The notes: a model not told the origin generated them from the letters alone. A stretch of DNA of 64,000 nt from Candidatus Gastranaerophilales bacterium (GCA_944325065.1 CALUYS010000001.1:35439-99438), one strand, 5' to 3'. Shown: positions 4,942 to 25,610, counted from the first letter of the stretch. Made by a program: numbers and translations.

Positions 4942-5976
4942 ATGGAAAAACAATCTAAAGATATTAAAACTCCTTGCCTATCAATTATTTTACCTTGTTA
5001 TAATGTTGATAAATATATTGAAAAAGCATTATTATCAGTTATCAATCAGACACTTAAAAATATTGAAATAATTTGTATTAATGATGGTTCAAATGATAAA
5101 ACTTTTGACATTATTAATAAATTTGCATTAGAAGATAAACGTATTAAAGTGTTTAATCAAGAAAATCAAGGACAAGGTGTGGCTCGTAATAATGGTATAG
5201 CTTATGCAACAGCTCCATATATTGCTTTTATGGATCCTGATGATTGGGTTGCAATAGATATGTATGAAAATCTTTATAATCTCATTGTTCTCAATGATGC
5301 TGATTTTGTTGAATGTGATTTAAATAAATATTATGAAACGTCAGGTGAGTTAAAAAAGGTAAAATTTGATTATCCTGCAATGGAAAATAAAATATTTAAT
5401 TACAAAAGCGACAAAAATTACGTCTTTAAAGGAACTTCTTTGTCACCTTGCAATAAATTATTTAAAAAATCCTTTATAATCAGTAATAATATATATTTTT
5501 CAAGCAGAAAATTATCTGAAGATCAAATTTTTATTTTAAAGGCGAAAATATTTGCCAAAAAAATTATTTATACCCCTATTGCATATTATACATATAATAT
5601 ACATCCAAAGTCTTCACTGACTACACAGAAAGAAGAAAATATTCATTTTGAAAATATTATATATGAAATTAATCAATTTTTTAAATCACAAAATCTTTAT
5701 GATGAATTTAAAAAATATATTGATGAATCTATATTAAATATTGTTAGAGAACATTATACATTATGTCCTATATATTTAAGAAAGAAATTTTTAAAAAATG
5801 CTAAAAACGTACTTGGTAATGATTTGTTTAAAAAATTTAATAAAAATCGTAAAATTGAAAATAAAAATAAATTTATAGAAAATATATTTTCTTTAAAAAA
5901 TGAATATAAGTTTGGTGTAAAATATAAAAGAGTTACATTGTTGGGATTGAAATTTGAGTTTGTAATAAAAAAGTAG
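4942..5976 (+). CDS. GT2 family glycosyltransferase with C-terminal Lys-rich tag module
   Basis: LSIILPCYNVDKYIEKALLSVINQT...ICINDGSNDKT and DPDD are typical of the GT-A GT2 fold. The last 30 aa are IFSLKNEYKFGVKYKRVTLLGLKFEFVIKK. Confidence 0.85.
   Translation: MEKQSKDIKTPCLSIILPCYNVDKYIEKALLSVINQTLKNIEIICINDGSNDKTFDIINKFALEDKRIKVFNQENQGQGVARNNGIAYATAPYIAFMDPDDWVAIDMYENLYNLIVLNDADFVECDLNKYYETSGELKKVKFDYPAMENKIFNYKSDKNYVFKGTSLSPCNKLFKKSFIISNNIYFSSRKLSEDQIFILKAKIFAKKIIYTPIAYYTYNIHPKSSLTTQKEENIHFENIIYEINQFFKSQNLYDEFKKYIDESILNIVREHYTLCPIYLRKKFLKNAKNVLGNDLFKKFNKNRKIENKNKFIENIFSLKNEYKFGVKYKRVTLLGLKFEFVIKK
5884..5973 (+). other. Tag module copy 1 (C-terminal on GT2)
   Basis: IFSLKNEYKFGVKYKRVTLLGLKFEFVIKK. 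Confidence 0.8.
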
Positions 5977-5988
5977 GAAAGTTGAAAA

Positions 5989-6981
5989 ATGTTATTAATA
6001 ACTGGTGGAGCAGGGTATATAGGAAGTCATGCTGTAATTAATTTTTTAGAAGCAGGGTATGATATTTTGATTTTTGATAATCTTGAAGTTGGGCATATTG
6101 AAATAATCAACACACTAAAAAAAATAGGGAACGTCAAATTTGAAAAGGGTGATTTGAGAAATTTGGCTGATGTTGAAGAATTGTTTAGCAAATATAAAAT
6201 AGATGGTGTAATTCATTTTGCAGCACATGCCTTGGTTGGAGAAAGCATGGTAAAACCTGATAAATATTATGAAAATAATGTTGTTGGTACTTTAAATCTG
6301 CTTAACACAATGATTAAAAATGATGTAAAAAAAATTGTATTTTCATCAACTTGTGCAACTTATGGAGAACCAAATTATGTTCCAATAGATGAAAACCATC
6401 CTCAAAATCCAATAAATCCTTATGGAACTTCAAAACTTATGGTTGAAAAAATATTGGATGATTATGATAAAGCTTATGATTTAAAGTCAATAAAATTAAG
6501 ATATTTTAATGTTGTTGGAGCTGATAGCAAATGTCGTATTGGAGAATGGCACGATAATGAAACTCACTTGGTTCCTAACATATTAAAATCAGTTTTACAA
6601 GAATCAAAAGAATTTAAAATTTTTGGTAATGATTATAATACTAAAGATGGAACTTGTGTTCGTGATTATGTTAATGTGGAAGATTTAGCTTATGCTCATC
6701 GTTTAGCTTATGAATATTTGTTAAAGGAGAATAAATCAGATGTTTTTAATTTAGGGACACAAAATGGAGTAAGTGTTAAAGAAGTTTTCGAAACATGTCA
6801 AAAGGTTTTGAATAAAAAAATAAGATATAAAATTGAAAATAGAAGAACAGGAGACCCTGCAATATTATATGCTGATACTTCTAAAATTCGTCAAATATTG
6901 AATTGGAAACCAAAGCAAACTTTCGAACATAGTATCAAAACAGCTAGCAAATGGGAGCAAAAAAATGAGCAACCAAAATAA
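5989..6981 (+). CDS. galE: UDP-glucose 4-epimerase
   Basis: 330 aa. Contains ITGGAGYIGSH, STCATYGEP, YGTSKLMVE, RYFNVVGA, CVRDYVNVEDLA. Confidence 0.85.
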   Translation: MLLITGGAGYIGSHAVINFLEAGYDILIFDNLEVGHIEIINTLKKIGNVKFEKGDLRNLADVEELFSKYKIDGVIHFAAHALVGESMVKPDKYYENNVVGTLNLLNTMIKNDVKKIVFSSTCATYGEPNYVPIDENHPQNPINPYGTSKLMVEKILDDYDKAYDLKSIKLRYFNVVGADSKCRIGEWHDNETHLVPNILKSVLQESKEFKIFGNDYNTKDGTCVRDYVNVEDLAYAHRLAYEYLLKENKSDVFNLGTQNGVSVKEVFETCQKVLNKKIRYKIENRRTGDPAILYADTSKIRQILNWKPKQTFEHSIKTASKWEQKNEQPK

Positions 6982-8071
6982 AAATATAATTCCTGTTGTT
7001 TTTGCTTCGGATGATAATTATGTACCGTATTTGGCGGTTACAATAAAATCTTTGATAGAACATGTTTCAAATGAAAATTTTTATGAAATATTTATTCTTG
7101 AAAATAAAATATCTGAATATAATAAAAAAAACATTCAAAGTTTAAGTAAAATTGATAATGTAAAAATAGAGTTTATTAATGTTGCTGATTATTTAAATAA
7201 CCTTAAATCAGAAACTTTTTTTACTTCAGGTTATATAAATATTTCGTCTTATTTTCGCTGCTTTATTATTGATATTTTTAAAGATTATGATAAAATAATT
7301 TATCTTGATAGTGATATTATTATTCTAGAGGATATTGCAAATTTATATAATATAACAATTTCTAAAAATAAAGCACTTGGTGTTATTCGCGATATTGGTA
7401 TTATAAATATACTTAATAATAAATCAAGAGTTGATTTGTATAAATTTGAAAATTATTTAAAAAAAGATTTAAATCTTTCAAATCCTGCTGATTATTTTCA
7501 AGCTGGTGTTTTAGTAATGAATTTAAAAGAATTGTGTAAAATAAATTTAATAAGTTTGTGTTTTAAAAAAACAAAAGAAATAAAAACACCTTTTTATCAT
7601 GACCAATGTATTTTAAACTCTATATTTTATAATCAAGTTGAATTTCTTCCAATGAAATGGAATCTATTACCTTATTTATTGTATAATGATGACAATATGT
7701 ATTTACCTGATGATATTAAAAATAAATATTTTGAAATTATTGAAAAAAAAGAAGGTATTATACATTATGCAACTTATGAAAAACCTTGGCGATGTCCTGA
7801 TTTGCCTTTGGCTCAAATATGGTGGGAATATGCACGATTGAGTCCTTTTTATGAGGAAATAATTTACCGTAATGCAAAAGAATGGTCTAATATAACTTAT
7901 GAAGAAAAAAATTTACTTAAAAAAGAAGATTATTTTAAATTTAAATGTTTAAAATATAAATTTTTATACTTTTTATCCTTTGGCAAAAAACGTGTTTATT
8001 ATAAAGAAAAATTGAAATTGTATGAATATAATTTAAAAAGAATAGTAAAAATAAAAGCGAGGAAGATATAA
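6965..8071 (+). CDS. GT8 family glycosyltransferase
   Basis: IPVVFASDDNYVPYLAVTIKSL, the DxD motif in YLDSDIII, FQAGVLVMNL, HYATYEKPW. Confidence 0.8.
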   Translation: MSNQNKNIIPVVFASDDNYVPYLAVTIKSLIEHVSNENFYEIFILENKISEYNKKNIQSLSKIDNVKIEFINVADYLNNLKSETFFTSGYINISSYFRCFIIDIFKDYDKIIYLDSDIIILEDIANLYNITISKNKALGVIRDIGIINILNNKSRVDLYKFENYLKKDLNLSNPADYFQAGVLVMNLKELCKINLISLCFKKTKEIKTPFYHDQCILNSIFYNQVEFLPMKWNLLPYLLYNDDNMYLPDDIKNKYFEIIEKKEGIIHYATYEKPWRCPDLPLAQIWWEYARLSPFYEEIIYRNAKEWSNITYEEKNLLKKEDYFKFKCLKYKFLYFLSFGKKRVYYKEKLKLYEYNLKRIVKIKARKI

Positions 8072-11034
8072 TGTCAACTAATCCCAAGATATCTGTTATA
8101 ATGTCAAGTTATAATCGTACTCAATATATAAAAGAAGCAATTGAGTCAATATTAAATCAAACATATCAAGATTTTGAATTTATTATTATTGATGATTGTT
8201 CTAAAAAAGAAACTCAAGATGTTATTGAAAACTATGCACAGAATGATGAAAGAATAATTTTTTTGAAAAATGAATATAATATGGGTCAAGCCTTAACTCG
8301 AAATAGGGGACTTGAAATTGCAAAAGGTGAATATATTGCAATTTTGGATGATGATGATATATCTTTACCAACACGTTTTGAAAAACAGGTGGAATATATG
8401 GATAAAAACCCTGAGATTATACTTTCCGGAACTGATATCGAAACTTTTGGTGGTAATGAAATATCATCATCTTGGGTAGATTTATTTGACCCTGAAATTA
8501 TATCAGTTTTAATAAATTTTTATAATCCTTTTTGTGCTTCAACTTTAATGTTCAGAAATAATTTTATAAAAGAGCATAATATTAAATATGATAATAGTGT
8601 TTGTCATGTAGAAGACTATGATTTGTATAGGCAAATTCTTGTAGCAGGTGGAAAAATTTCTAATTTGCCTCAAGTGCTTGTAAAATATAGAGTTCATAAA
8701 CAAAGCGTGACTCAGAATAAACAAAGTCAGAAAATACAAATCCTTGCATCAGAAAAAGTTAAACAAAGGTTATTAAGTAGATTCTTTGACAATAAAACAG
8801 TAGAAAAAATTATTAATACTATAAAATCTTATCCTTTTTACAATGCTAATAATAAAAAGGATATTTATGAATATCTTATGCTTATGAAAAAAAATAATAG
8901 CAATAAAATTATTAACAATAATTCAATAGATAAAACAATTGAGTTTATATGTGGAAAATCTTCGATAATGAATATATTCTTTTCTTCTAATAATAATTAT
9001 TCTCAACATTTATGTGTATCTATTGCATCTATACTTATTAATTCTTTACCAATTGAAAATTTTAATTTTTATATTTTAGACGGAGGGATTAAAGATAAAA
9101 ATAAAGAAAAAATATTAAATTTGAAAAGAATTAAAAATTTTAATATTGAATTTATAAAAATTGACGATAAACTTTTCAAGGATTGTGATATTACTTCAGA
9201 ATGTATGCATATTTCTAAACAAACATATTATAGATATATAATTCCAAAATTGAAACCTCAAATAAAAAAATGTTTATATTTAGATTGTGATATTGTTGTT
9301 AATAATAGTTTAAATGAATTGTGGAATATAGATTTAGAAGATAATTATATTGCAGCAGTTGAAGATTTATCATTAATAACAAATGATGATGCAAAACGTC
9401 TTGAAATAAATCATTATTTTAATGCCGGTGTTCTGCTAATTAATAATGAACTTTGGATAAAAGATAATATTACGGAACTTTTATTCCAAAATACATTAAA
9501 AATAAAAGATAAAATTCGTTGGGTTGACCAATGTGTTTTAAATTATACATTTAAAGATAAAGTTTTATTTTTATCTCCGAAATATAATTTACAGCATAGT
9601 GCATATAAAGATACAAAATATAATATATATAGTAAAGACCAAATTGATTTTGTAAAAAAATTTCCTATAATTATTCATTATTCAGGTAGTGATAAACCTT
9701 GGAGTAAAAAATGTATTCATAGTTTATGGAAACAGTATTATAAATATTTAAAATATACTCCTTATAAAAAACAATATTGTACTTATAAATTAAAAAAAAT
9801 TTTAAAAAATATCTTAAGAAGTATTTTTTCAATCCAAAATATAGAATGTTATAAGCTGGTGAAATTTTTTGGTTTAAAATTTTATATTAAAAATAAACAG
9901 AAAGAATATATGTTAAAACTTGAAAATGATATAAAAAATGATATAAAAAATATTGAACATCTTATAAATGGAAATAAGATTTATATAGATGATATTGATA
10001 TTAAAATTAAGAAAAATATACTACAAAATAGTAGATTATGGGATGCTCAATGGTATTTAAAAACATACGGATATAGTTATTATAAAACGGAAGCTTTGAA
10101 TTATTATATTGAAACTGGGTGGAAGAAAAAAGAAAGTCCTTCAAAATATTTTAATACCGAATATTATCTTTTAAAATATGGTAATACTTTGAATAATGAA
10201 ATTCCTGTTATTCATTATTTAACAAAAGGTAAATATTGGTGTTATTATTTAGATAATAAGAACAATTATAAGTCAAAATTTGATGAACAAAATATAAAAA
10301 ATTATCTTGAATACAAAAATAATAGAAATGCTAAAGGTGTTATTTATACTTGTATTACGAATGATTATGATGATATATATGAAATAGAGACATATAAATA
10401 TGTTAATAAAGATTGGGATTATGTTTGTTTTACTGATAATCAAGAACATATAAAAAAGGGACAAATAGGTATTTGGCAGATAAGACCTTTGGCATATTGT
10501 GAATCTGATAACACTCGTAACAACAGGTGGCATAAAATACATCCTCATATTTTATTTCCTGAATATGAAAAAAGTATATATATTGATGCAAATATTAATA
10601 TTTTATCAAATAAATTATTTAATATAATCAATCAAAAAAATACTAATATTGTTCTACCTGAACATTTTAATACTTCTTGTATATATCAAGAACTTAATTG
10701 GGCTTTGGACTCTGGTATAGATAATTATAATATTGTGTTTAAACAATATGAACTTATAAAAAATTCTAATATGCCGAAAAATTATGGATTTACTGAAAAT
10801 AATCTTATTTATCGTAAACATAATGAAAAAAATGTTATTGATTTAATGGATGAATGGTGGTATATGGTATCAAATTATTCAAAACGTGATCAGTTATCAT
10901 TCGTATATTTATTATGGAAACGGCAAATTGATATAGAAGATATCACATTTAAAAATACAAGAATTGATGATGAAAATTTTTATGTATTTGACCATAAAAA
11001 GTTAAGGGAAAAAAGTATTGTTTGTATAAAATAA
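8071..11034 (+). CDS. Multidomain glycosyltransferase: GT2 - GT8 - internal tag module - DUF616/TOD1-like domain
   Basis: 987 aa. N-terminal ISVIMSSYNRTQYIKEAIESILNQT..IIIDDCS (GT2). Middle NIFFSSNNNYSQHLCVSIASIL..YLDCDIVV..HYSGSDKPW (GT8). Tag at 9823-9891. C-terminal GVIYTCITNDYDDI..WDYVCFTD..NRWHKIHPH..IYIDANI..RDQLSF (DUF616-like). Confidence 0.8.
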   Translation: MSTNPKISVIMSSYNRTQYIKEAIESILNQTYQDFEFIIIDDCSKKETQDVIENYAQNDERIIFLKNEYNMGQALTRNRGLEIAKGEYIAILDDDDISLPTRFEKQVEYMDKNPEIILSGTDIETFGGNEISSSWVDLFDPEIISVLINFYNPFCASTLMFRNNFIKEHNIKYDNSVCHVEDYDLYRQILVAGGKISNLPQVLVKYRVHKQSVTQNKQSQKIQILASEKVKQRLLSRFFDNKTVEKIINTIKSYPFYNANNKKDIYEYLMLMKKNNSNKIINNNSIDKTIEFICGKSSIMNIFFSSNNNYSQHLCVSIASILINSLPIENFNFYILDGGIKDKNKEKILNLKRIKNFNIEFIKIDDKLFKDCDITSECMHISKQTYYRYIIPKLKPQIKKCLYLDCDIVVNNSLNELWNIDLEDNYIAAVEDLSLITNDDAKRLEINHYFNAGVLLINNELWIKDNITELLFQNTLKIKDKIRWVDQCVLNYTFKDKVLFLSPKYNLQHSAYKDTKYNIYSKDQIDFVKKFPIIIHYSGSDKPWSKKCIHSLWKQYYKYLKYTPYKKQYCTYKLKKILKNILRSIFSIQNIECYKLVKFFGLKFYIKNKQKEYMLKLENDIKNDIKNIEHLINGNKIYIDDIDIKIKKNILQNSRLWDAQWYLKTYGYSYYKTEALNYYIETGWKKKESPSKYFNTEYYLLKYGNTLNNEIPVIHYLTKGKYWCYYLDNKNNYKSKFDEQNIKNYLEYKNNRNAKGVIYTCITNDYDDIYEIETYKYVNKDWDYVCFTDNQEHIKKGQIGIWQIRPLAYCESDNTRNNRWHKIHPHILFPEYEKSIYIDANINILSNKLFNIINQKNTNIVLPEHFNTSCIYQELNWALDSGIDNYNIVFKQYELIKNSNMPKNYGFTENNLIYRKHNEKNVIDLMDEWWYMVSNYSKRDQLSFVYLLWKRQIDIEDITFKNTRIDDENFYVFDHKKLREKSIVCIK
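9823..9891 (+). other. Tag module copy 2 (internal, shortened)
   Basis: IFSIQNIECYKLVKFFGLKFYIK, located between the GT8 and DUF616-like parts. Confidence 0.65.
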
Positions 11035-11063
11035 ATAATAATAAAAAATGATGGAGTCACGAA

Positions 11064-12017
11064 ATGAATTTATTAATAACAGGTGGAGCTGGATTTATTG
11101 GTTCTACATTAGCTGATAAATTATTAAAAATTGAAAGTAATAATATTATTGTCATTGACAATTTTAATGATTATTATTCTCCCAAGTTGAAAGAAAAAAA
11201 CATAAAACATAATTTAGATAATAAAAAATATAAATTGTATCGTGGTGATATATGCGATAAGAGTTTGTTATCAAGAATATTTAATGAAAGTAAAATTGAT
11301 ATTGTTGTTCATATAGCAGCCTCAGCTGGTGTAAGACCATCTATTGATAAACCTTTAGATTATATAAAAAATAATATAGAAGGTACGGTCAATATTCTTG
11401 AAGTGATGAAAAAAAATAACGTAAAAAAAATAGTATTTGCTTCATCAAGTTCAATATATGGCAATTGCAAGGAAAAAGTATTTTCTGAAGATTTAAAAGT
11501 TTCTGAGCCAATATCGCCTTATGCAGCTTCAAAATCAGCTTGTGAACAGTTTTTGTACACATATTCAAAATTATTTGATATTCAAGTTGTGGCATTAAGG
11601 TTTTTTACGGTTTTTGGACCAAGACAAAGGCCGGACTTGGCAATTCGTAAATTTATTGATTTAATTAAAGAAAATAAGTCAATACCAGTATATGGTGATG
11701 GTACAACAATCCGTGATTATACATATGTTGATGATATAGTTGATGGAATAATTGGTGCTATAAAATATAATGATACACAATATGAAATAATTAATCTTGG
11801 AGGCGGTGCTCCTGTTAGTTTAAATCAAATGATTGAAACAATTGAGAAAGCTTTAAATAAAAAAGCAAAAATAGAACGATTACCTATGCAACCAGGAGAT
11901 GTCAATAAAACAGTAGCTTCTATAACAAAAGCAAAAAAACTTTTAAATTATAATCCTAAAACAAGTTTTGAAAATGGTATAATAAAATTTATTGAATGGG
12001 AGAAAAATAATGAATAA
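11064..12017 (+). CDS. NAD-dependent epimerase, UDP-glucuronate 4-epimerase-like
   Basis: [66 protein letters not shown]. This pattern is typical of UDP-GlcA 4-epimerases. Confidence 0.7.
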   Translation: MNLLITGGAGFIGSTLADKLLKIESNNIIVIDNFNDYYSPKLKEKNIKHNLDNKKYKLYRGDICDKSLLSRIFNESKIDIVVHIAASAGVRPSIDKPLDYIKNNIEGTVNILEVMKKNNVKKIVFASSSSIYGNCKEKVFSEDLKVSEPISPYAASKSACEQFLYTYSKLFDIQVVALRFFTVFGPRQRPDLAIRKFIDLIKENKSIPVYGDGTTIRDYTYVDDIVDGIIGAIKYNDTQYEIINLGGGAPVSLNQMIETIEKALNKKAKIERLPMQPGDVNKTVASITKAKKLLNYNPKTSFENGIIKFIEWEKNNE

Positions 12018-13116
12018 CAATATAATTAGGATATGTATTTTACATCCTCAAGTTTCAAATGTTGATTGGATGTTTAGTTTTTTGAAAATTCCTAATGAAA
12101 AATATCATTTTGTGTGGGATGATAAAAATCCTGATTATATTATTGCATCAGAATGGGTATATTATGAATCAGAATTTTTTAACAAATTTTTATCATTACA
12201 AAAACCGAATGTTATAAATATTTTTTTTGCTGGTGAATGTCTTGAACCAGATTTAAATATTTTTGACTATGCTATAGTTTTTGATAAAAATTTAAAATAT
12301 GAAGACAGAGTTTCAAGAATCCCTACACTTCAATTTTTTGGTAAATATGTTAATGATTCTTTTTTTGAAACAGTTGAAAATCCAAAAGAGTTATTAAAAC
12401 ACAAAACAGGCTTCTGTAATTTTATATATTCAAATGGTAATGCACATCCCAATCGTGATAAATTATTTTATAAAATATCTGAATATAAAAAAGTTGATTC
12501 TTTAGGACCACACTTAAGAAATGTTGAAGTAAAAGAGCCATTAGTTCATTGGAGTGAAAAAAAACGTTATAAGTTTTCAATAGCTTGTGAAAATGCTTGT
12601 TATAAAGGATACACAAGTGAAAAAATAATAACAAGCTTTGCTGCAAATACAATACCCATTTATTGGGGAGATCCATTGGTTGAAAATTTTTTTAATCCGA
12701 AAGCTTTTATAAATGCTAATAATAAAAGTTTTGATGAAGTATTAAAAATTGTTCAAGAAATTGACAATAATGATCAGTTGTGGTGTAAAATAATAGCTGA
12801 ACCTCATATTTTAGATTGGCAAAAAGAAAATTTTATAAAAGAGAAAGAAGAATTTCAACAATTTTTATACAATATTTTTGATCAAGAAATTGAACAAGCA
12901 AAAAGAGTTGGACAAGGATATCATCCAACAAATTATCGTAAATGGTTTAGAACATTAACAACAAAGGATGTTTATGGAAATTATGAATGTATAATTAAAA
13001 AAAATAATTTTTTACAAAATGTATTTTCTGTAAGAAATTCATTTGAAGCAAATCAAAAAAGGAAAATAATAAGTTTATTTGGTATTAAATTTAAATTCAA
13101 GACGAGCAAGGTTTAA
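12010..13116 (+). CDS. GT10 family alpha-1,3/4-fucosyltransferase-like protein with C-terminal tag module
   Basis: CNFIYSNGNAHPNRDKLF and KFSIACENACYKGYTSEKI resemble the conserved GT10 FucT motifs. I prefer the ATG at 12010, which follows GGGAGA; the ORF track starts at TTG 11992. Confidence 0.65.
   Translation: MNNNIIRICILHPQVSNVDWMFSFLKIPNEKYHFVWDDKNPDYIIASEWVYYESEFFNKFLSLQKPNVINIFFAGECLEPDLNIFDYAIVFDKNLKYEDRVSRIPTLQFFGKYVNDSFFETVENPKELLKHKTGFCNFIYSNGNAHPNRDKLFYKISEYKKVDSLGPHLRNVEVKEPLVHWSEKKRYKFSIACENACYKGYTSEKIITSFAANTIPIYWGDPLVENFFNPKAFINANNKSFDEVLKIVQEIDNNDQLWCKIIAEPHILDWQKENFIKEKEEFQQFLYNIFDQEIEQAKRVGQGYHPTNYRKWFRTLTTKDVYGNYECIIKKNNFLQNVFSVRNSFEANQKRKIISLFGIKFKFKTSKV
13021..13113 (+). 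other. Tag module copy 3 (C-terminal on GT10)
   Basis: VFSVRNSFEANQKRKIISLFGIKFKFKTSKV. Confidence 0.75.
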
Positions 13117-13142: not shown

Positions 13143-14216
13143 ATGACTAAAACTATTATAATAACAGGTTCAGGTGGGTTGATTGGTTCAGAAGCAACTA
13201 AATTTTGGCATGAAAAGGGATATAATATTGTTGGTATTGATAATGATATGCGGGCTTATTATTTTGGAATTGAAGCATCGACAAATAAAAATGTGCTAAA
13301 ACATAAGGAAACATTATCTAATTATCAACACTATAATATTGATATAAGAGATTATAATTTACTTGAAAAAATTTTTAAAGATTATAATAATGATATTCAA
13401 GGTATAGTTCATACTGCAGCACAACCTTCACATGATTGGGCTTGTCGTGAGCCTTTAACTGATTTTGGTGTTAATGCTCAAGGAACTTTAAACATGCTTG
13501 AACTAACGCGTCAATATGCAGAAAATGTTCCGTTTATATTTACTTCAACAAATAAAGTATATGGTGATACACCTAATTATTTACCTCTAATTGAACTTGA
13601 GACACGTTATGAAATAGATAAAAATCATAAATTCTACGAAAAAGGTATTGATGAAACAATGTCAATTGACAATTCTAAACATTCCATTTTTGGAGCAAGT
13701 AAAGTTGCAGCTGATGTGATGGTTCAAGAATATGGTAAATATTTTGGTATGAAAACGGTTGTATTTAGAGGCGGTTGTTTGACAGGTCCGACACATTGTG
13801 GTGCTCAACTTCACGGATTTTTAGCTTATTTAATTAAATGTGCTTGTAATAAAAGTGAATATACAATCTTTGGTTATAAAGGTAAACAAGTTCGTGATAA
13901 TATACATTCTCATGATTTGATTAATGCGTTCTGGCATTATTTTCAAAATCCTAAATCAGGTGAAGTATACAATATGGGGGGAAGTCGTTATTCAAATGTT
14001 TCAATGATTGAAGCTATAAGTAAAATAGAAAATATTTTGGGTTATAAAATAAAATATGTGCTAACTGAGGAAGCACGTATTGGTGATCATATATGGTACA
14101 TTTCAGATGTTTCAAAATTTCAAAAAGACTATCCAAATTGGCATTATGAGTATGATTGTGATAAAATTATAAACGAAATGGTTGAAAATGCTTTACAACA
14201 AATGGCTTTAAAATAG
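13143..14216 (+). CDS. Extended SDR NAD-dependent sugar epimerase/dehydratase (CDP-paratose 2-epimerase-like)
   Basis: [46 protein letters not shown]. Confidence 0.6.
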
Positions 14217-14229
14217 GATATAATGTATA

Positions 14230-18047: not shown

Positions 18048-18065
18048 TTTATCTCCCAATATTTT

Positions 18066-18218
18066 TTACATAATTTTTATTATCGTTACCTTGGTAAAAT
18101 CCCCTACATATATTAACACAAAAAAATTATAACTTATATAAATAATATTTCTTTATTATGAAATAAAAAAATGTATTATTAAGGCACTTATCTGGTAACG
18201 ATAATAAAAATTATGTAA
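18066..18218. repeat. Perfect 25 bp inverted repeat (18066-18090 / 18194-18218) flanking a 103 bp AT-rich spacer in a divergent promoter region
   Basis: TTACATAATTTTTATTATCGTTACC on the left is the exact reverse complement of GGTAACGATAATAAAAATTATGTAA on the right; I checked it base by base. The arms end 18 nt and 15 nt from the two divergent start codons. Confidence 0.9.
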
Positions 18219-18233
18219 GAATGGTTTTTTAAA

Positions 18234-19208
18234 ATGGGAGAACATAAAAATAATATAAAAATCGCTTTTTGTTTTGATAATAATTTGATGAAACAAATTT
18301 GTGTTACGGTTGCAAGTTTGCTTGATGCTAGTAAAAATAGTTGTTCTCATTACGATATTTATTGTATATGTTCCAATGGAGCAGAAAAAGTTGAAAATAA
18401 GTTAAAAAAAATTGTTAAAAAACGCGATAAATTTTCAAATATATTCCTATATCCAGTAGAAAATAAATATGCAAATGGTTATGAAATTAGAAAAATTACA
18501 AGTGGTGCATATTTAAGACTTCAATTGCATAATATTTTATCAAATCTTGATAAAATTATTTATTGCGATGTAGACATTTTATTTAAAAATAATTTGCAAG
18601 AAATTTGGGATATTCCTATTGATCACAACTATTTTATGGGGGTAAAAGGAGCTAATAATTTAAGTCATATTTGGAATGAAAATCTTATAAAATTTAATTA
18701 TTGGAATAAATTTGACAAAAATACTTATATTAATAGTGGGGTAGTTGTTATGAATTTACAAAAAATTCGTGATGACAATCTTGAAAAACAATGGGAAAAC
18801 ATGGTAAATGATGCTTATTTTTACGTGGATCAAGACATTATTAATATTGTTTGTAAAAATAAAATAGGATTTTTGCCTTTAAAATATAACATTCCTGCAT
18901 ATTTAGATAATAATACTCTTTTAAATTATGAAAAAGAAAATATATATGAAAAATCTTTCATTGAAGATGCAATAAATAATCCATCAGTTATTCACTATGC
19001 AGGAGAAAAACCTTGGGATAATCCAAATATATTAAATAGTTATTATTGGATTAATTATGTAAAAAGTCAAAAGGATTTGAAAAAAATGTTTAAAACAAAA
19101 CAAAAAATAAAATTATTTAGCATAAATAATGAATATTCAAATAATAAAAAATACAAAGTTATTACTTTATTTGGAATAAAAATAAAACTACGATGTAAGA
19201 AAGGGTAA
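18234..19208 (+). CDS. GT8 family glycosyltransferase with C-terminal tag module
   Basis: IKIAFCFDNNLMKQICVTVASLL, YCDVDILF (DxD), NSGVVVMNL, HYAGEKPW. Confidence 0.8.
   Translation: MGEHKNNIKIAFCFDNNLMKQICVTVASLLDASKNSCSHYDIYCICSNGAEKVENKLKKIVKKRDKFSNIFLYPVENKYANGYEIRKITSGAYLRLQLHNILSNLDKIIYCDVDILFKNNLQEIWDIPIDHNYFMGVKGANNLSHIWNENLIKFNYWNKFDKNTYINSGVVVMNLQKIRDDNLEKQWENMVNDAYFYVDQDIINIVCKNKIGFLPLKYNIPAYLDNNTLLNYEKENIYEKSFIEDAINNPSVIHYAGEKPWDNPNILNSYYWINYVKSQKDLKKMFKTKQKIKLFSINNEYSNNKKYKVITLFGIKIKLRCKKG
19113..19205 (+). other. Tag module copy 7 (C-terminal on GT8)
   Basis: LFSINNEYSNNKKYKVITLFGIKIKLRCKKG. Confidence 0.85.
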
Positions 19209-19210
19209 AA

Positions 19211-20530
19211 ATGTTAAATTATAAAAAAATATTACTTATAAATCCTTATATCAAACTAGATCGAGAAAATCCAATCGCTATACTTGATATGGCTCCATAT
19301 TTTAGAAAATGTGGTATAGAAGTTGATGTATGTAATTTTCCCGATCTACCTGAGTTTAAAGATTATGATATGATAGGTATAAGTTGTATTTCAAGTGAAG
19401 GCGGATATATTTTTGAGCAACTTAAAGTTATTCGCGAACATTTTCGAGGAAAGAAAATAGTTATTGGTGGAAAATGGTCAACAACAATGACAGAGGAAGA
19501 AGCTTTAAAATTGCAGACTTTAAATATTGAAGTTGAAACAGGCAAAGGAGAACTTGTTTATACAAATGATAAAGTTATAAATTTTGAAAAGTATCCTTCA
19601 TGGGATAAAAATGATTTTGAAATTCTGTGTGCCAATAATATAATGATGACATCTCGTGGTTGTCCTTTTCATTGTAATTTTTGCAATAATACCGAAGAAA
19701 AAGTAAGTTATTTTACTGCTAAACGAACTGTAGATAATCTTGAACTTATTTTGAGTAAAAATAATGATGTATACTTTGTAGATGATATTTTTGTTACAAA
19801 TTATGAACATGCAAAAGCAATTTATGATGAATGTAAACGACGTAAAATTAAAATTGAAAACCATAATAAATTTTTTGTACATCTAAATACGGTTAATGAT
19901 AAAACTATTAAAATAATCAAATTGTTTAAACCCAAAATGGTTAATGTTGGCATTGAGTCAGGTAATGATTCAATGCTAAAAAAGATGAATAAAAAAACAA
20001 GTGTTGAAAAAATAAGAAAAAATGTAAAAACTCTTTCAAAATATACAAATGTCCATGGTTTATGGATGGTCGGTTATCCTTATGAAACAATTGATACACT
20101 TAAAAATTCTTGGAATTTAATGAAGGAACTTGCTCCATACATACATTCAAATTGGATAAGTCATTATATTCCCTTGTATGCTACAGTTGGATATCATATG
20201 GCAATGGAAGAAGGTGGTAAATTTAATCAAGGTATTGATAATCGTCATGTTGCTTATATACCTAAAGGTTTAACTCAAGACATTTTAATTGAATATAGAA
20301 CAAAAATGATGCAATTTAATAATATTTTATTTAAAAGACAAAATATATACAAATATTACTTTTATAAAATTGTTTCAAAAATTTCAATAGGTAAATTAAG
20401 AAAAAAAGTTAAGGCAAAGTATAAAACATTAAAGTCGCAATTCTCTCCCCCCCCCCCGATAAAATCCAATATTTTAGATTTAATTTATATTCTAAGATTA
20501 TCTTGTTTTTTAAATGTTTTTTATATTTGA
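19211..20530 (+). CDS. B12-binding-domain radical SAM enzyme (class B-like)
   Basis: The N-terminal ~130 aa have a Rossmann-like B12-binding layout, followed by MTSRGCPFHCNFCNN (CX3CX2C) and VGIESGND. The 3' end contains a C11 tract. Confidence 0.7.
   Translation: MLNYKKILLINPYIKLDRENPIAILDMAPYFRKCGIEVDVCNFPDLPEFKDYDMIGISCISSEGGYIFEQLKVIREHFRGKKIVIGGKWSTTMTEEEALKLQTLNIEVETGKGELVYTNDKVINFEKYPSWDKNDFEILCANNIMMTSRGCPFHCNFCNNTEEKVSYFTAKRTVDNLELILSKNNDVYFVDDIFVTNYEHAKAIYDECKRRKIKIENHNKFFVHLNTVNDKTIKIIKLFKPKMVNVGIESGNDSMLKKMNKKTSVEKIRKNVKTLSKYTNVHGLWMVGYPYETIDTLKNSWNLMKELAPYIHSNWISHYIPLYATVGYHMAMEEGGKFNQGIDNRHVAYIPKGLTQDILIEYRTKMMQFNNILFKRQNIYKYYFYKIVSKISIGKLRKKVKAKYKTLKSQFSPPPPIKSNILDLIYILRLSCFLNVFYI
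20447..20457 (+). repeat. Homopolymeric C11 tract inside the 3' end of the B12-radical SAM gene
   Basis: Counted directly: ttctct + 11 C + gat. It encodes SPPPP in the called frame. Confidence 0.95.
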
Positions 20531-20548
20531 GAAATGAGGTAATTTAAG

Positions 20549-21454
20549 ATGAAATTTATTTCTTTTAAAAACGAGTATTTAAACGATAAAAAGTATAAAG
20601 TTTTAACTTTATTTGGAATAAAATTTAGATTTAAGTCAAAAAAACAAAATCAAATAAACAATTGTAATTATTTGCAAACATTACCCCGCTTGGAGATTCA
20701 TGTATGTGATAAATGCAATTTAAATTGTCGTGGTTGTACACATTATTGTAATGTTGCACAAGAAGATAGATTTGTTGATATAAGTAATTTTGAAAAGGAT
20801 ATAAAAGAAGTTGCTAAAAAACTTAATTTTTATGAAATCAAACTTTTGGGTGGTGAACCTTTGCTACATCCTAATTTAATTGAATTCTTTAGATTAACTC
20901 GTCAAGCATTTCCAACAAGTAAAATTATTTTAACAACGAACTTAATTTTGCTTGATACGATGAAAGAAAATTTTTGGGAAGCTATGAAGAAACACAATAT
21001 TGTTTTTCAATTGACAAAATATCCTCCAATGAATGAAAAATTTGTTCACTATTTGGATTTAATTGCTTCTCATAATATTATTATCGACAATATTCATGTT
21101 GCAAATGAGTTTTGGTTGTTTAAAAATCCGAATGGAGATTCAAATTCTCAAGAAGTTTATAAACAATGTCCTGAAGCTTATTGCCGACAACTTCGTGACG
21201 GAAGATTATATATTTGCCCTGATGCTTGTTATATGGATTATTATAATAAATACTTTAGTAAAAATATTCCAGTTGACAAAGGAATAGATGTTTATAAACA
21301 TTCAAGTGAGGAAATTTATAATTATTTGACAACACCGAAAGAAACTTGTAAATTTTGTTTTGCAAAGGACAAATTTAAATACGTACCTTGGGAAAAATCA
21401 CAAAAAAAATATGATGAATGGGATGGAGAAGTGGCAAATGAAGTTATTGTTTAA
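20549..21454 (+). CDS. Radical SAM enzyme with N-terminal tag module
   Basis: LEIHVCDKCNLNCRGCTHY (CX3CX2C), LLGGEPLLHP. The tag lies at aa 3-29. Confidence 0.7.
   Translation: MKFISFKNEYLNDKKYKVLTLFGIKFRFKSKKQNQINNCNYLQTLPRLEIHVCDKCNLNCRGCTHYCNVAQEDRFVDISNFEKDIKEVAKKLNFYEIKLLGGEPLLHPNLIEFFRLTRQAFPTSKIILTTNLILLDTMKENFWEAMKKHNIVFQLTKYPPMNEKFVHYLDLIASHNIIIDNIHVANEFWLFKNPNGDSNSQEVYKQCPEAYCRQLRDGRLYICPDACYMDYYNKYFSKNIPVDKGIDVYKHSSEEIYNYLTTPKETCKFCFAKDKFKYVPWEKSQKKYDEWDGEVANEVIV
20555..20635 (+). other. Tag module copy 8 (N-terminal on radical SAM)
   Basis: FISFKNEYLNDKKYKVLTLFGIKFRFK. Confidence 0.85.
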
Positions 21455-21490
21455 GTTTAAGCTTATTAGATAATAATGAAGAGGTATAAA

Positions 21491-22351
21491 ATGAATACAA
21501 TAAATAAAAATGGAATATCAGAAGTAACGACGTCACAATTTGGTGAGGATATTATTGTTAATTACTTAATAAAATTATTAAAAAACAACAATATTATTAA
21601 TGATATGACATATATTGATATTGGAGCTTGTGATCCTGTTAGAAATAATAATACAATTAGATTTTATGAACAAAATTTAAATACAAATATGATGTTGAAA
21701 AGTGTTTTAATTGAAGCAAATCCTTATCAATATGAAAGATGTAAAAAAAATCGTCCTAATGATATAGTTCTTAATGCAATAATTGTTGATAAAAAAAATG
21801 ATAATAAAAAAATACCATTTTATGTATTTGCGAATGAATCTGGTTTGAATACAATGTCAAAAATTCAAGCTGAAAGTATATTAAAAGAATTACCTAATGT
21901 ATTTACTCATTATGATACTGTTATGGTTGATACAATAACGATAAATGAAATAATAGACAAATATTTTAATAATAAACCACCAGTTTTTATAGATCTAGAT
22001 ATCGAAGGAATAGAGTTAAAAATATTAAAATCTTTTAATTTTAAAAAATCCAAACCTTTGATATGGTGTATTGAAACATCTGAATTAATTACTGACTTTG
22101 AAGTTGGGAAAAAAGAGAATGACATAGTAAGTTTTATGAAAAGTAAAGGCTATGAGGTATATGCTGATACTTATTTAAATACTATTTTTATAGATAAAAA
22201 TATTTTAAAAAAACTTGTCCGCAAGCATAGTATGAAAAATAGTTGTATAAATATAGAAAAGATATTTTCTATAAAAAATAAATATTCAAATAATAAAAAA
22301 CATAAAATTTTGACTATTTTTGGTGTAAAATTTAAGATAAGATGTAAATAG
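21491..22351 (+). CDS. FkbM family methyltransferase with C-terminal tag module
   Basis: YIDIGACDPV and FIDLDIEGIELKIL. I prefer the ATG at 21491, after GAAGAGG; the ORF track starts at 21476. Confidence 0.7.
   Translation: MNTINKNGISEVTTSQFGEDIIVNYLIKLLKNNNIINDMTYIDIGACDPVRNNNTIRFYEQNLNTNMMLKSVLIEANPYQYERCKKNRPNDIVLNAIIVDKKNDNKKIPFYVFANESGLNTMSKIQAESILKELPNVFTHYDTVMVDTITINEIIDKYFNNKPPVFIDLDIEGIELKILKSFNFKKSKPLIWCIETSELITDFEVGKKENDIVSFMKSKGYEVYADTYLNTIFIDKNILKKLVRKHSMKNSCINIEKIFSIKNKYSNNKKHKILTIFGVKFKIRCK
22262..22348 (+). other. Tag module copy 9 (C-terminal on FkbM MTase)
   Basis: IFSIKNKYSNNKKHKILTIFGVKFKIRCK. Confidence 0.85.
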
Positions 22352-22366
22352 AAAAAGGGTTGTATA

Positions 22367-23299
22367 ATGAAACAAATATTAATTACAGGTGGGGCAGGTT
22401 TTATAGGGAGTCATTTATGTGAAAGATTATTAAATGAAGGCAATGAAGTTATATGTCTTGATAATTTTTTTACAGGTTCAAAAGAGAATATAAGACATTT
22501 ACTTGATAATAGTAGGTTTGAACTTGTTCGTCATGATGTAACAAACGAGTATTATGCTGAAGTTGATCAGATATATAATATGGCATGCCCAGCATCTCCT
22601 CCGCATTATCAATACAACCCTATAAAAACAATAAAAACATCTGTTTTGGGGGTTATGAACATGCTTGGACTTGCTAAACGTTGTTGTGCAACAATATTAC
22701 AAGCTTCGACATCAGAAGTGTACGGAAATCCACTTATTCACCCTCAAACAGAAAATTATTGGGGAAATGTTAATCCTATTGGAATAAGAAGTTGTTATGA
22801 TGAAGGAAAAAGATGTGCGGAAACTTTAATGATGGACTATTATCGACAAAACAAAGTTGATAGTCGGATAATTAGAATTTTTAACACCTATGGACCAAAT
22901 ATGGATCCAAATGACGGTCGAGTTGTTTCTAATTTTATTGTCCAAGCATTGAAAAACAAAGATATAACTATGTATGGTGATGGAAGTCAAACAAGATCTT
23001 TTTGTTATGTTTCAGATTTAGTTGATGGCATAATCAAAATGATGAACAATGAACAAAAGTTTATTGGGCCTGTTAATTTGGGTAATCCAAGTGAAAGAAC
23101 TGTGTATAACCTTGCAGAATTAATTATTAATTTGACAAATTCAAATTCAAAAATAAAATTTAAACCATTACCTCAAGACGATCCGCTCCAAAGAAAACCT
23201 GATATATCTTTGGCTAAAAAAGAACTTAACTGGGAACCAAAAGTTGATATTAAAGAAGGTCTATTAAAAACAATTGAATATTTCGCAAAAAAAATATAA
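22367..23299 (+). CDS. uxs: UDP-glucuronate decarboxylase (UDP-xylose synthase)
   Basis: [79 protein letters not shown]. Confidence 0.9.
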
Positions 23300-23313
23300 A
23301 AAGGAGTTTAATT

Positions 23314-24288
23314 ATGCAACTTATTGATTTAGAAAAAGAAAATATAAATAAATACAATGAGTTAAAACCAATAATCGGCGGTGTAATTTCACAATCTTGT
23401 GAACAAGTTAATTTTTTATCATATTTAATAAAAAAATATAAACCTCAAAAAGTATTAGAACTTGGAGTCGCATCAGGTGCATCAAGTATTGTTATATTAA
23501 ATACATTAAAAGAAATACTGAATAATTATCATCTTTATTCAATAGATTATTTATCTTATTGGTATGCAAACCCTAATAAAAAAACAGGTTTTTTAGTTGA
23601 AGAAAAAACGCCTGAATTAATAGATAAGTGGACTTTAAAAACGGGTGGTCTTGCTTGTGAATTTATGGATAAAATATGTCCGAATGGTGAAAATGATATT
23701 GATTTTTGTTTCATTGACACAATGCATATGCGTCCTGGTGAAATATTAGATTTTCTAATGGTGTTACCTTATTTAAAGAAAAACGGTGTTGTTGTTTTTC
23801 ATGATACTGTTTTACAGACATTGGGTGAAAAATATAAAAATTATGATTGCAATTGTATATTATATAGTGCTATTAAAGGAATAAAATATCAACCTTTAAA
23901 AGATACTTCATATCCTTCAAATATTGGTGCTGTTATATTGGATGAAAATATAAAAGATAATCTTTATGATATATTTAGTTTGTTATTGCTAAGTTGGTTT
24001 TATAAAATAGAGGAAAATGAATATTTACAAATTTTATATTATTTTGAAAAACATTACAATTCGTATTTGATAGAAATTTATAAACAAGCTTATTATTACA
24101 ATAATGCTTTAGTAGATAAAAAATTAAAAAATGGTAAATTAACCAATAAAGATATTTGTAAAATGTATAAGTATATGATATTATCAAAGTTAGGGATAAA
24201 AAAATATAAAGATAAATTAAATAATTATAAAGAAAAAATTTGGGTTAAAACAAAAAAAATAATTGAAAAGGAGTTAATTTTATCATGA
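23314..24288 (+). CDS. Class I SAM-dependent methyltransferase-like protein
   Basis: VLELGVASGASSIVIL and FCFIDTMH..NGVVVFHDT fit a Methyltransf_24-like layout. The C-terminal ~100 aa are unrecognised. Confidence 0.55.
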   Translation: MQLIDLEKENINKYNELKPIIGGVISQSCEQVNFLSYLIKKYKPQKVLELGVASGASSIVILNTLKEILNNYHLYSIDYLSYWYANPNKKTGFLVEEKTPELIDKWTLKTGGLACEFMDKICPNGENDIDFCFIDTMHMRPGEILDFLMVLPYLKKNGVVVFHDTVLQTLGEKYKNYDCNCILYSAIKGIKYQPLKDTSYPSNIGAVILDENIKDNLYDIFSLLLLSWFYKIEENEYLQILYYFEKHYNSYLIEIYKQAYYYNNALVDKKLKNGKLTNKDICKMYKYMILSKLGIKKYKDKLNNYKEKIWVKTKKIIEKELILS

Positions 24289-25610
24289 AAGTATGTGTAA
24301 TAGGCACAGGATATGTTGGTTTAGTAGCAGGCACGTGTCTTGCTGAGATGGGAAATGATGTAATCTGTGTTGATAATAACCTTGAAAAATTGAGTCAACT
24401 CAAAAATGGTATTATACCAATTTATGAACCTGGGCTTGAAGAACTTATAAAAGCGAACGTTTCTGAAGGAAGATTATTTTTTACCTCAAATTTAAAAGAA
24501 GCTGTTGAACAATCACTTGTTTGTTTTATTGCTGTTGGGACTCCTCAAGGTGAAGATGGTGAAGCTGATTTAAAATATGTATATGAAGTTGCAAAAAGTA
24601 TCGGACAATCAATTAATGATTATAAAGTTATAGTTGATAAATCAACTGTTCCTGTTGGAACAGCTGATGCTGTTAGTAAAATTATTAAAGAACAAACAAA
24701 CATTGAATTTGATGTTGTCTCTAATCCTGAATTTTTGAAACAAGGTGCAGCTGTGGATGATTTTTTGAAACCTGATAGGGTTGTAATTGGTTCAAACTCT
24801 CAAAGGGCAACTGAGATAATGCAAGAATTATATTCACCATTTTTGCGTACCGGAAATCCAGTTATTATTATGGATGTAAAATCAGCTGAAATGACAAAAT
24901 ATGCAGCTAATTCATTTTTGGCTGTTAAAATATCATATGCAAATGAAATAGCAAATATCTGTGAGCAAGTTGGTGCTGATGCTGAAATGGTGCGTATTGG
25001 AATGTGTTCAGATAAAAGAATAGGTTCACAGTTTTTGTTTCCAGGGTTGGGCTATGGAGGCAGTTGTTTCCCCAAAGATGTAAAAGCTCTTCTTAAGACA
25101 GCAAAAAAAAATAATTGTGATTATCAACTTCTTCAAGCTGCTGATAATGTTAACAAAAAACAAAGACAAGTTTTTCTTAATAAAATTTTAAATAAATATG
25201 GCAATGATTTAAATGGAAAAACATTTGCAATTTGGGGATTAGCTTTTAAACCTAAAACTAATGATATGAGAGAAGCACCTGCCATAACAATTATTAATGC
25301 TTTGTTAGAAAGAGGAGCTAAAATTCAAGCTTATGACCCAAAAGCAATGGATAGTGCAAAAGAAATTTTTGACAATAAAATAACTTATTCTAAATCAGCT
25401 TATGATGCTTTAAATAATGCTGATTGCATGCTTTTACTTACTGAATGGAATGAATTTCGTCGCCCTGATTTTGATAAAATAAAGTCATTGATGAAAGAGC
25501 ATGTTATTTTTGATGGACGTAACCAATATAATTCAAAACGATTAATTGAAAAAGGTTTTGAATATTATCAAATTGGTAAACAAACAAATAATGTCTTAAT
25601 TAGTATTTAG
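24285..25610 (+). CDS. ugd: UDP-glucose 6-dehydrogenase
   Basis: MKVCVIGTGYVGLV, NPEFLKQG, GYGGSCFPKD (catalytic Cys), LAFKPKTNDMREAP. ATGA start/stop overlap with the previous gene. Confidence 0.9.
   Translation: MKVCVIGTGYVGLVAGTCLAEMGNDVICVDNNLEKLSQLKNGIIPIYEPGLEELIKANVSEGRLFFTSNLKEAVEQSLVCFIAVGTPQGEDGEADLKYVYEVAKSIGQSINDYKVIVDKSTVPVGTADAVSKIIKEQTNIEFDVVSNPEFLKQGAAVDDFLKPDRVVIGSNSQRATEIMQELYSPFLRTGNPVIIMDVKSAEMTKYAANSFLAVKISYANEIANICEQVGADAEMVRIGMCSDKRIGSQFLFPGLGYGGSCFPKDVKALLKTAKKNNCDYQLLQAADNVNKKQRQVFLNKILNKYGNDLNGKTFAIWGLAFKPKTNDMREAPAITIINALLERGAKIQAYDPKAMDSAKEIFDNKITYSKSAYDALNNADCMLLLTEWNEFRRPDFDKIKSLMKEHVIFDGRNQYNSKRLIEKGFEYYQIGKQTNNVLISI

Follow-up and report, generated by a model that had tools for sequence, protein, structure and literature searches.

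Surface-glycan loci whose export genes lie elsewhere in the genome are already known, as is each of the enzyme families considered here. For the lipopolysaccharide (LPS) O-antigen of Helicobacter pylori, primer and ligase are encoded at scattered sites, there is neither a Wzy polymerase nor a Wzm/Wzt exporter, the family 10 glycosyltransferase (GT10) bears a basic C-terminal appendage, and the fut genes are phase-variable through poly-C tracts. The enterobacterial waa loci with their GT8 enzymes and the lipooligosaccharide (LOS) loci of Neisseria, Haemophilus and Campylobacter use soluble, peripheral enzymes, hold no export genes and show strain and phase variation. In the capsule of Campylobacter jejuni HS:2, the TupA-like domain of Cj1438 (Cj1438C) amidates the carboxylate of glucuronic acid (GlcA); the amine, serinol phosphate or ethanolamine phosphate, is made by an aminotransferase and trimmed by a phosphatase (PMC11800379). 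In Bacteroides, short repeat-bounded segments (gut invertons) lie upstream of capsule operons and have been observed in both orientations (Jiang et al. 2019, cited in PMC7672463). Here we describe a gene cluster that partly resembles all of these, the island, at positions 4942-25610 of a 64,000-nucleotide stretch of DNA, the window, from Candidatus Gastranaerophilales (GCA_944325065.1 CALUYS010000001.1:35439-99438). The Gastranaerophilales are uncultured, nonphotosynthetic relatives of cyanobacteria in human and animal guts, and to our knowledge nothing is known of their surface. The literature found on them goes no further than noting that nucleotide-sugar and LPS pathways are enriched, and our literature search returned no paper tying radical S-adenosylmethionine (SAM) enzymes, UDP-xylose (UDP-Xyl) and O-antigen together.

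We propose, with a probability of roughly one half, that the island is a phase-variable surface-glycan locus of the LPS type, the single large one of its genome, and that it is served by unlinked export genes through a unit linked to undecaprenyl diphosphate (Und-PP). It comprises 17 tightly packed open reading frames (ORFs), all recovered at the coordinates given below, which are window positions on the plus strand unless the minus strand is named. Together these ORFs encode seven glycosyltransferase domains, four methyltransferases, three radical SAM domains and one TupA ATP-grasp domain, and housekeeping genes form both flanks. The source is a metagenome-assembled genome (MAG) of 1.86 Mb in 37 contigs, 98.4% complete; the window is very AT-rich (only 20-35% G+C), and its nearest relatives bear the titles Candidatus Gastranaerophilales or Melainabacteria, among them the human-gut MAG UMGS1657. 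Families were assigned by Pfam and NCBIfam profile scans, with the short-chain dehydrogenases/reductases (SDRs) refined by sequence searches of the PDB. A first-pass annotation, made from the DNA alone, had listed the enzymes of the island, and the scans recovered every family that it named, including the two stand-alone GT8 proteins; the GT10 protein was confirmed by fold as well. It overlooked the species-variable cassettes, the phase variation by inversion and poly-C tract, and the link of its extra SDR to rfbF/G/H on another contig.

The locus is phase-variable by DNA inversion and by a poly-C tract. An invertible element of 153 bp (18066-18218), in which 25-bp perfect inverted repeats at 18066-18090 and at 18194-18218 bracket a 103-bp spacer (18091-18193), separates a leftward operon, encoding a TupA-radical SAM fusion and a methyltransferase, from a rightward operon that runs from GT8b through two radical SAM genes to an FkbM gene and onward. 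The spacer of the window recurs as its exact reverse complement, with 0 mismatches and collinear flanks, in five assemblies made independently (L109, L111, L112, L113 and L114); the segment between the repeats is therefore seen in both orientations. The evidence is a comparison of independent metagenome assemblies of ~98%-identical strains, and because the repeats are only 25 bp long, we consider an assembly artifact unlikely. The repeat is unique in the genome, and a variant that lacks the rightward cassette has a single repeat arm only. The minus strand of the element carries a TTAATA-16-CATAAT site and a perfect TATAAT, in a scan that did not rise above shuffled sequence; the strand with the perfect TATAAT is directed toward the fusion operon in the window and, in the five inverted assemblies, toward the GT8b operon. 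Inversion would then pick between two divergent tailoring operons within a strain by redirecting a promoter. This arrangement differs from the Bacteroides invertons in that the element sits between two divergent operons of one locus and may choose between tailoring sets rather than turn a whole locus on or off, and in its lack of an adjacent invertase, its genome-unique repeat and its Melainabacteria lineage. A tyrosine-recombinase motif occurs in three proteins of the genome (by regular expression only), including a 459-amino-acid (aa) protein at C37:392-1771. A large serine recombinase (C27:15508-16962) was rejected as the invertase, as it looks like an element integrase (CcrB/XisF-like), not a small invertase; contigs C27 and C37 are small and may be mobile elements.

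The second variable site is a poly-C tract (20447-20457) within the gene for a divergent radical SAM protein (19211-20530). Its length is C11 in the window, L111 and L114, C10 in L112 and C13 in L109, with homopolymer assembly error a possible contributor to these counts. Lengths of C11, C10 and C13 give products of 439, 416 and 403 aa, respectively, and alter the C-terminal tail, so that the tract combines what is expected of a simple-sequence contingency site: a coding homopolymer, a variable length and a changed product. In H. pylori the corresponding tract lies in the GT10 gene; here it lies in a radical SAM gene.

Variation between species takes another form, with the edges of the locus conserved and its center swapped. 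The sister species G002 holds a locus of similar size at the same site, between PNP/pilin-like genes and an S-layer homology (SLH) gene. Its left edge (GT2, GalE, GT8a, GT2-GT8 and uronate epimerase) is 70-98% identical to that of the island and its right edge (UDP-Xyl synthase, Methyltransf_24 and Ugd) 85-95% identical. Its center instead encodes a pair of different methyltransferases, a protein with radical SAM/SPASM domains, one of 909 aa with aminotransferase and haloacid dehalogenase (HAD) phosphatase domains, and a separate TupA protein. In L110 the center holds a class I methyltransferase and the fusion only, and in L103 it holds a GT10/epimerase/FkbM cassette and a 925-aa TupA-aminotransferase-HAD fusion. 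All variants have a TupA domain, which makes TupA a constant of the locus. To judge from these alignments, the locus consists of swappable cassettes around a constant core, as do O-antigen and capsule loci.

The genes that would serve such a locus were found elsewhere in the genome. A scan of window ORFs of at least 100 aa turned up no gene for a flippase, polymerase, ABC permease, primer or chain-length regulator, and neither Wzx nor Wzy lies in the locus. Each island protein has one hydrophobic segment at most; there is no multispan membrane protein, and the locus has no membrane-embedded processive GT2. This agrees with the first-pass annotation, which saw no export, priming or polymerase genes in reach and suggested either that those functions lie elsewhere or that the locus decorates an existing acceptor such as the LPS core, both of which are compatible with the sequence. 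Candidates for functions elsewhere do exist: genome-wide, there is one WecA-like, one Wzx-like and one Wzy_C/IctB-like gene, all unlinked, and no Wzm, Bac_transf primer (0 matches) or, above cut-off, gmd. Two genes match Glycos_transf_4, namely, MraY in the mur cluster and the stand-alone WecA-like gene (C2:97299-98378). The Wzx-like flippase (Polysacc_synt) is the only one of its kind, on contig C10, with MurJ a separate gene; the single Wzy_C protein is IctB-like and is encoded beside the rfaE heptose kinase gene, ~36 kb past the end of the window. The Wzm/KpsM/TagG-type permease family ABC2_membrane (PF01061) has 0 matches in the 98.4%-complete genome, with matches to the controls in 14 of 14 genomes. 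LpxC is present, and therefore the bacterium makes LPS. Other glycosyltransferases are few and scattered, and the island is therefore the only multitransferase cluster of the genome. Unlinked to it are a PgaC-like membrane GT2 synthase (C2:105167-106582) and a small GT2 resembling polyprenyl-phosphate sugar synthases (C4:102076-102768).

Under the proposed reading, untagged soluble enzymes would supply UDP-galactose (UDP-Gal), UDP-GlcA, UDP-Xyl and probably UDP-galacturonic acid (UDP-GalA), and a further enzyme (13143-14216) would act on a C2-epimerized CDP-sugar fed by rfbF/G/H from another contig. The WecA-like enzyme would prime undecaprenyl phosphate. Peripheral enzymes that share a Lys-rich tag would then build and tailor a hetero-oligosaccharide of uronic acid, xylose and hexose on a membrane-bound acceptor, the builders being the GT2, GT8, GT10 and GT116-like enzymes and the tailoring set comprising the FkbM and class I methyltransferases, the TupA-radical SAM fusion and one further radical SAM enzyme, with the ATP-grasp domain putatively amidating a uronic acid carboxylate. 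The Wzx-like protein would flip a single Und-PP-linked unit, and the Wzy_C/IctB-like protein would ligate it outside the inner membrane. The 103-bp invertible element would pick between the two divergent tailoring operons within a strain, and the poly-C tract would alter one radical SAM protein.

Several observations weigh against this scheme. The WecA-like gene scores 146 bits against TIGR02380, below the cut-off of 326, and the IctB-like match is also below its curated cut-off. The unlinked WecA-, Wzx- and Wzy_C-like genes could serve the synthesis of something else, such as a pyruvylated wall polymer for SLH proteins. GT8 enzymes and a WaaH-like GT2 are typical of direct extension of the LPS core, which needs no primer, flippase or ligase. 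The multidomain GT2-GT8 protein suggests polymerization in the cytoplasm, and we know of no Wzx flippase that handles a cytoplasmically polymerized glycan. The whole genome has no gmd above cut-off that would provide GDP-fucose as a donor for the GT10 enzyme. Finally, no invertase could be assigned and none adjoins the element, and a sigma-70 scan of the switch region found promoter-like sites no more common than in shuffled sequence.

The main rival, which we regard as somewhat unlikely, is a route of the LOS type in which the tagged transferases extend lipid A-core at the cytoplasmic face, MsbA flips the product and Lpt moves it onward, with no primer, Wzx, Wzy or ligase. For three GT8 proteins of the island, the best or sole NCBIfam match is the LPS 3-alpha-galactosyltransferase model NF011718, and the GT2 at 4942-5976 aligns over its full length to NF007482/PRK10073, which we take to be the model of E. 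coli YibD/WaaH. All of these matches, however, fall far under their cut-offs. The absence of membrane proteins from the island would suit such a route, as would the presence of LpxC and the rfaE kinase; LOS loci typically show homopolymer tracts and on/off variation, and distant TOD1_MUCI70/GT8/TupA/GT10 loci likewise have no export genes within 8 kb. What the LOS route leaves idle is the orphan set of primer, flippase and ligase-like protein, for which no other transferase cluster is evident. Radical SAM enzymes, ATP-grasp, UDP-Xyl supply and an invertible element also set the island apart from the waa and LOS loci.

Glycosylation of a protein (pilin, flagellin or an SLH/S-layer protein), either in the cytoplasm or from an Und-PP donor by an O-oligosaccharyltransferase of the Wzy_C family, seems improbable. 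The Wzy_C family does include PglL/PilO-type transferases, but the protein found here is IctB-like and encoded beside an LPS heptose gene. Divergent from the island and adjoining it is a prepilin-like gene (4029-4652; weak ComGE and N_methyl matches) that varies much more than its neighbors, an SLH protein is encoded on the other flank, and the genome has flagellar genes (bioRxiv 10.64898/2026.04.24.720558), each of which would provide a candidate acceptor. No flagellin gene adjoins the island, though, and no Maf-, PglB- or PglL-specific marker turned up, in scans that were not aimed at them. Between sister species the prepilin-like gene is 59-62% identical, compared to 90-93% for PNP, and looks like a fast-evolving surface protein adjoining a glycan locus. 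Least probable of all, and very doubtful in our view, is a wall polymer or capsule made by an unrecognized route (an SLH-anchoring polymer, or a GT2-GT8 cytoplasmic polymer that crosses the membrane through an ABC exporter of the PglK/Wzk type, the kind found in H. pylori, which combines WecA, GT10, Wzk and WaaL with scattered genes): the SLH gene adjoins, the multidomain GT2-GT8(-GT116) protein resembles a polymerase and there is no Wzy besides the single Wzy_C protein, but the genome has no ABC2-type permease, and the SLH gene is tied to the island by position only and is conserved while the island varies.

Returning to the LPS-type reading, the five nucleotide-sugar enzymes of the island are predicted to feed a glycan rich in uronic acid and xylose. 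GalE, a UDP-glucose 4-epimerase (5989-6981; untagged; 91% identical in G002), scores 434 bits against TIGR01179 (cut-off, 262). The SDR at 11064-12017 falls under that cut-off (219 versus 262 bits) and is closest to UDP-glucuronate 4-epimerase structures (6ZL6/6ZLA, E = 1.6e-59; 5U4Q, E = 8e-69), 6ZLA being the Bacillus cereus UDP-GlcA 4-epimerase; by this similarity it would supply UDP-GalA, which is how the first-pass annotation had tentatively placed it. The supply of UDP-Xyl claimed there is borne out by a UDP-glucuronate decarboxylase (UDP-xylose synthase [UXS]; 22367-23299; 94% identical in G002) that matches human UXS1 essentially end to end (417 bits; E = 5e-124; residues 2-309). Ugd, a UDP-glucose 6-dehydrogenase (24285-25610; 95% identical in G002), scores 475 bits against TIGR03026 and 550 bits against the TuaD model. 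The remaining SDR (13143-14216) resembles CDP-tyvelose 2-epimerase (1ORR, E = 6e-37; 9RL0, E = 9e-35). Far from the island, at C5:64281-67556, lie rfbF, rfbG and rfbH, which encode the route to CDP-4-keto-3,6-dideoxyhexose and of which rfbG is a CDP-glucose 4,6-dehydratase equivalog (472 bits); these genes could feed the 13143 enzyme. Near them is a gene for a 309-aa GT2-like protein (C5:58524-59453), and a 284-aa RmlD/Fcl-like SDR (C6:28151-29005) could be the missing reductase of the rfb pathway.

Among the glycosyltransferases, the GT2 with a C-terminal tag (4942-5976; PF00535, E = 1e-36; 70% identical in G002) is followed by GT8a, a retaining enzyme (6965-8071; PF01501, E = 3e-44; 98% identical in G002), and GT8b, with a C-terminal tag, lies beyond the invertible element (18234-19208; PF01501, E = 1e-32). 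The 98% identity of GT8a between two species (6965-8071 versus L018:3838-4956), where neighboring genes of the locus are 70-91% identical, suggests a recent exchange of this gene between species. A giant protein of 987 aa (8071-11034) joins GT2 (E = 3e-36), GT8 (E = 5e-50), an internal tag and a TOD1/MUCI70 domain (DUF616, GT116-like; residues 581-987, 37.6 bits versus a cut-off of 21.4); G002 and L110 hold a 617-aa form that lacks the DUF616 part. GT116 enzymes use UDP-GalA (PMC13010939). The combination of TOD1_MUCI70 and GT8 with a supply of UDP-GalA, UDP-GlcA and UDP-Xyl recalls the plant pectin GT116 enzymes (RGGAT1/MUCI70), the GT8 uronosyl and xylosyl transferases and the LARGE1-type bifunctional polymerases, whereas the giant is predicted to be a bacterial cytoplasmic protein with three domains fused and a modest TOD1_MUCI70 match (37.6 bits).

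Structural modeling of the GT10 fucosyltransferase-like protein, which has a C-terminal tag (11992-13116; PF00852, 58.7 bits; PF18025, 35 bits), revealed similarity to H. pylori FucT. The PDB sequence search matched 2NZW (E = 1e-21), and the AlphaFold2 model (mean predicted local distance difference test [pLDDT] score, 88.9) retrieved the same structure by Foldseek (E = 3e-17; template modeling score, 0.59-0.64). The protein has the C-terminal domain, the FucT N-domain and the GT-B fold of that enzyme, and residues E200, N201, Y207, E210 and K211 are invariant in 45 homologs. Its true start is likely the ATG at 12010, giving 368 aa, a length shared by its homologs. The basic C-terminal appendage is a trait that it shares with the H. 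pylori enzyme. Unlike H. pylori, this bacterium has no GDP-fucose synthesis genes, and its flippase is Wzx-like, not of the ABC type. The first-pass annotation had remarked on the lack of GDP-fucose genes near the GT10 gene, and the genome-wide absence of gmd above cut-off extends this. The only other extended SDRs of the genome are RfbG and the 284-aa RmlD/Fcl-like protein; a fucose salvage route may exist, as a motif search for GHMP kinase (Fkp-type fucose salvage) found no match but is too crude to be informative. A gene resembling mannose-1-phosphate guanylyltransferase is present below cut-off, and the CDP-sugar genes could supply an alternative donor.

The genes for GT10, the 13143 epimerase and the first FkbM protein (FkbM1) are present or absent together, as a three-gene cassette. 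That the neighboring TyvE-like epimerase makes the GT10 donor is a weak idea: the genes come and go together, but distant loci differ. In loci L106, L107 and L108, GT10 homologs (51-60% identical) directly follow a TupA gene, with TOD1_MUCI70, GT8 and Ugd nearby, and have no TyvE-like epimerase beside them and no export genes within 8 kb. By gene content, the TupA/GT10/TOD1_MUCI70/GT8 set in these distant bacteria looks like a recurring module.

Of the tailoring steps, amidation of a uronic acid is the best supported. The minus-strand fusion (16170-18059) consists of a tag, a TupA-like ATP-grasp domain and a radical SAM/SPASM part (PF14305, PF04055 and PF13186), and its true start is likely the ATG at 18047 (625 aa). 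The TupA domain covers profile positions 1-240 of 241 at 195.1 bits (cut-off, 25). In the sister loci of G002 and L103, an aminotransferase and HAD module lies beside or is fused to TupA, as in C. jejuni Cj1437/Cj1435; it is because these loci repeat the C. jejuni trio that amidation stands ahead of the other steps, and the first-pass suggestion that the glycan is possibly amidated gains from this and from the activity of Cj1438C (PMC11800379). By analogy, the TupA domain would amidate the carboxylate of a uronic acid at the expense of ATP. As in C. jejuni HS:2, a TupA-like ATP-grasp sits in a locus that supplies uronic acids; in the window strain, however, it is fused to a radical SAM/SPASM domain, which takes the place of the amine-supply module of the sister loci, and aminotransferase, phosphatase and kps-type ABC exporter are absent. 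The sole PDB sequence match of the radical SAM part is the sugar dehydrogenase BtrN (4M7T, E = 4e-6), and an AlphaFold2 model of this half built without an alignment was too poor for a fold search (pLDDT, 55.7). The full fusion was found in 2 of 30 related genomes, and only in close relatives and rare others such as P0097 and P0015.

The protein with the poly-C tract (19211-20530) is a divergent, class-B-like radical SAM enzyme with weak PhpK/HpnJ-type matches and no match in the PDB sequence search. The first-pass annotation had called it a B12-binding radical SAM enzyme. The radical SAM core is clear (PF04055, with the CX3CX2C cluster as CPFHCNFC); the B12-binding domain (PF02310) scores only 16.9 bits, below the cut-off of 32.1, although remote homologs (25-30% identity) carry it. 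A third radical SAM protein, of 301 aa with an N-terminal tag, is encoded at 20549-21454 (PF04055 and PF13353; 7WZV, E = 1e-13). Like the sugar-modifying radical SAM enzymes described so far (the dehydrogenase BtrN and class B methylases such as GenK), the island proteins have CX3CX2C clusters; the fusion matches BtrN, and the remote homologs of the 19211 protein carry B12-binding domains. Those enzymes, in contrast, belong to antibiotic pathways, not surface glycans, and the matches are weak (E = 4e-6; 16.9 bits for B12 binding). The C-methylation that the first-pass annotation considered possible would be one candidate chemistry. Four methyltransferases complete the set: FkbM1 with an N-terminal tag (14230-15315; TIGR01444, 76 bits); a class I SAM methyltransferase with an N-terminal tag on the minus strand (15324-16148; PF13489 and PF08242); an FkbM protein with a C-terminal tag (21476-22351; PF05050, E = 2e-16) that is split in L109 (131 and 142 aa); and a class I methyltransferase of the Methyltransf_24 family (23314-24288; PF13578, E = 9e-14; 85% identical in G002). 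Outside the island, at C6:52954-55215, lies a second pair of radical SAM (281 aa, ArsS/ScmF-like) and FkbM (398 aa) proteins, both untagged.

The tag itself is a Lys-rich module of ~30 residues at a protein end or a domain junction, present in nine proteins, all encoded in the island and none elsewhere in the genome. Scores against a hidden Markov model (HMM) built from the nine tags include 53.6 bits for the GT2 at 4942 (residues 309-344), 38.2 for the giant (residues 579-610), 53.6 for FkbM1, 54.3 for the methyltransferase at 15324, 58.3 for GT8b, 52.4 for the radical SAM protein at 20549 and 58.7 for the FkbM protein at 21476. Nine of the 12 transferase and tailoring proteins are tagged, versus none of the five nucleotide-sugar enzymes (a hypergeometric count by hand gives ~0.009). 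Over 77 TupA-bearing loci from many phyla, the HMM matched in Gastranaerophilales only, and a strict regular expression found almost nothing outside the genus; the idea that such tags are common in Firmicutes was dropped on these grounds. In the AlphaFold2 model of the GT10 protein, the tag (residues 345-370) folds into a small unit of three beta strands, preceded by a disordered linker, at only moderate confidence (pLDDT, 57-71). It might serve as an address that brings enzymes to a membrane-bound acceptor or to each other, in which case the methylation and radical SAM steps would take place on the glycan, not on nucleotide sugars. At 19150-19250 the tag forms the C terminus of GT8b, two bases before the start of the radical SAM gene, and homologs of that radical SAM protein (P0242, P0244 and P0249) have a tag-like N terminus. 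Sitting at gene and domain junctions, the tag may change owner by fusion or fission.

A bolder proposal, which we put forward as unlikely, holds that the tag is a lineage-specific, tethered beta module that serves as an address and assembles glycosyltransferases, methyltransferases and radical SAM enzymes at a single membrane-bound glycan, that the switch picks between two tailoring sets, each with radical SAM enzymes, and that the TupA-radical SAM enzyme in one of them introduces a novel modification of a uronic acid amide. If true, this would amount to new chemistry and to a new organizing principle for bacterial surface glycans.

Elsewhere in the window, dnaA lies at 54034-55413, with SecDF, biotin genes and a gene for a GGDEF-HD protein close by; this position puts the island ~30 kb away from the region where the replication origin probably lies. 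Two adjoining paralogs (30358-32073; 290 and 276 aa) have signal-peptide-like starts and no Pfam match; in G002 and G004, relatives within the same genus, they are conserved at 92-96%. Just past the island (region 25621-27407), the ORF at 26274-27407 (377 aa) stops shortly after a T10 run. Its homologs are a single 592-aa gene in the ~98%-identical strain L109 and genes of 436-448 aa in other relatives, which makes the window copy look truncated, whether through a frameshift or through a miscalled homopolymer.

New here are the lineage, the set of three radical SAM domains within one surface-glycan locus (one of them fused to TupA), the tag, and an inversion seen in both states between tailoring operons. 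Direct tests are possible for the shared tag and for the DNA inversion verified here, and the locus poses tractable enzyme questions: the product of the TupA-radical SAM fusion, the roles of the two further radical SAM enzymes on a surface sugar, and the donor of a GT10 enzyme in a genome that lacks GDP-fucose synthesis. For the Gastranaerophilales, the island gives a picture of a cell surface that varies between species, switches within strains and is predicted to carry much uronic acid, xylose and methylation, and such variation bears on how host immunity and phages recognize these bacteria.

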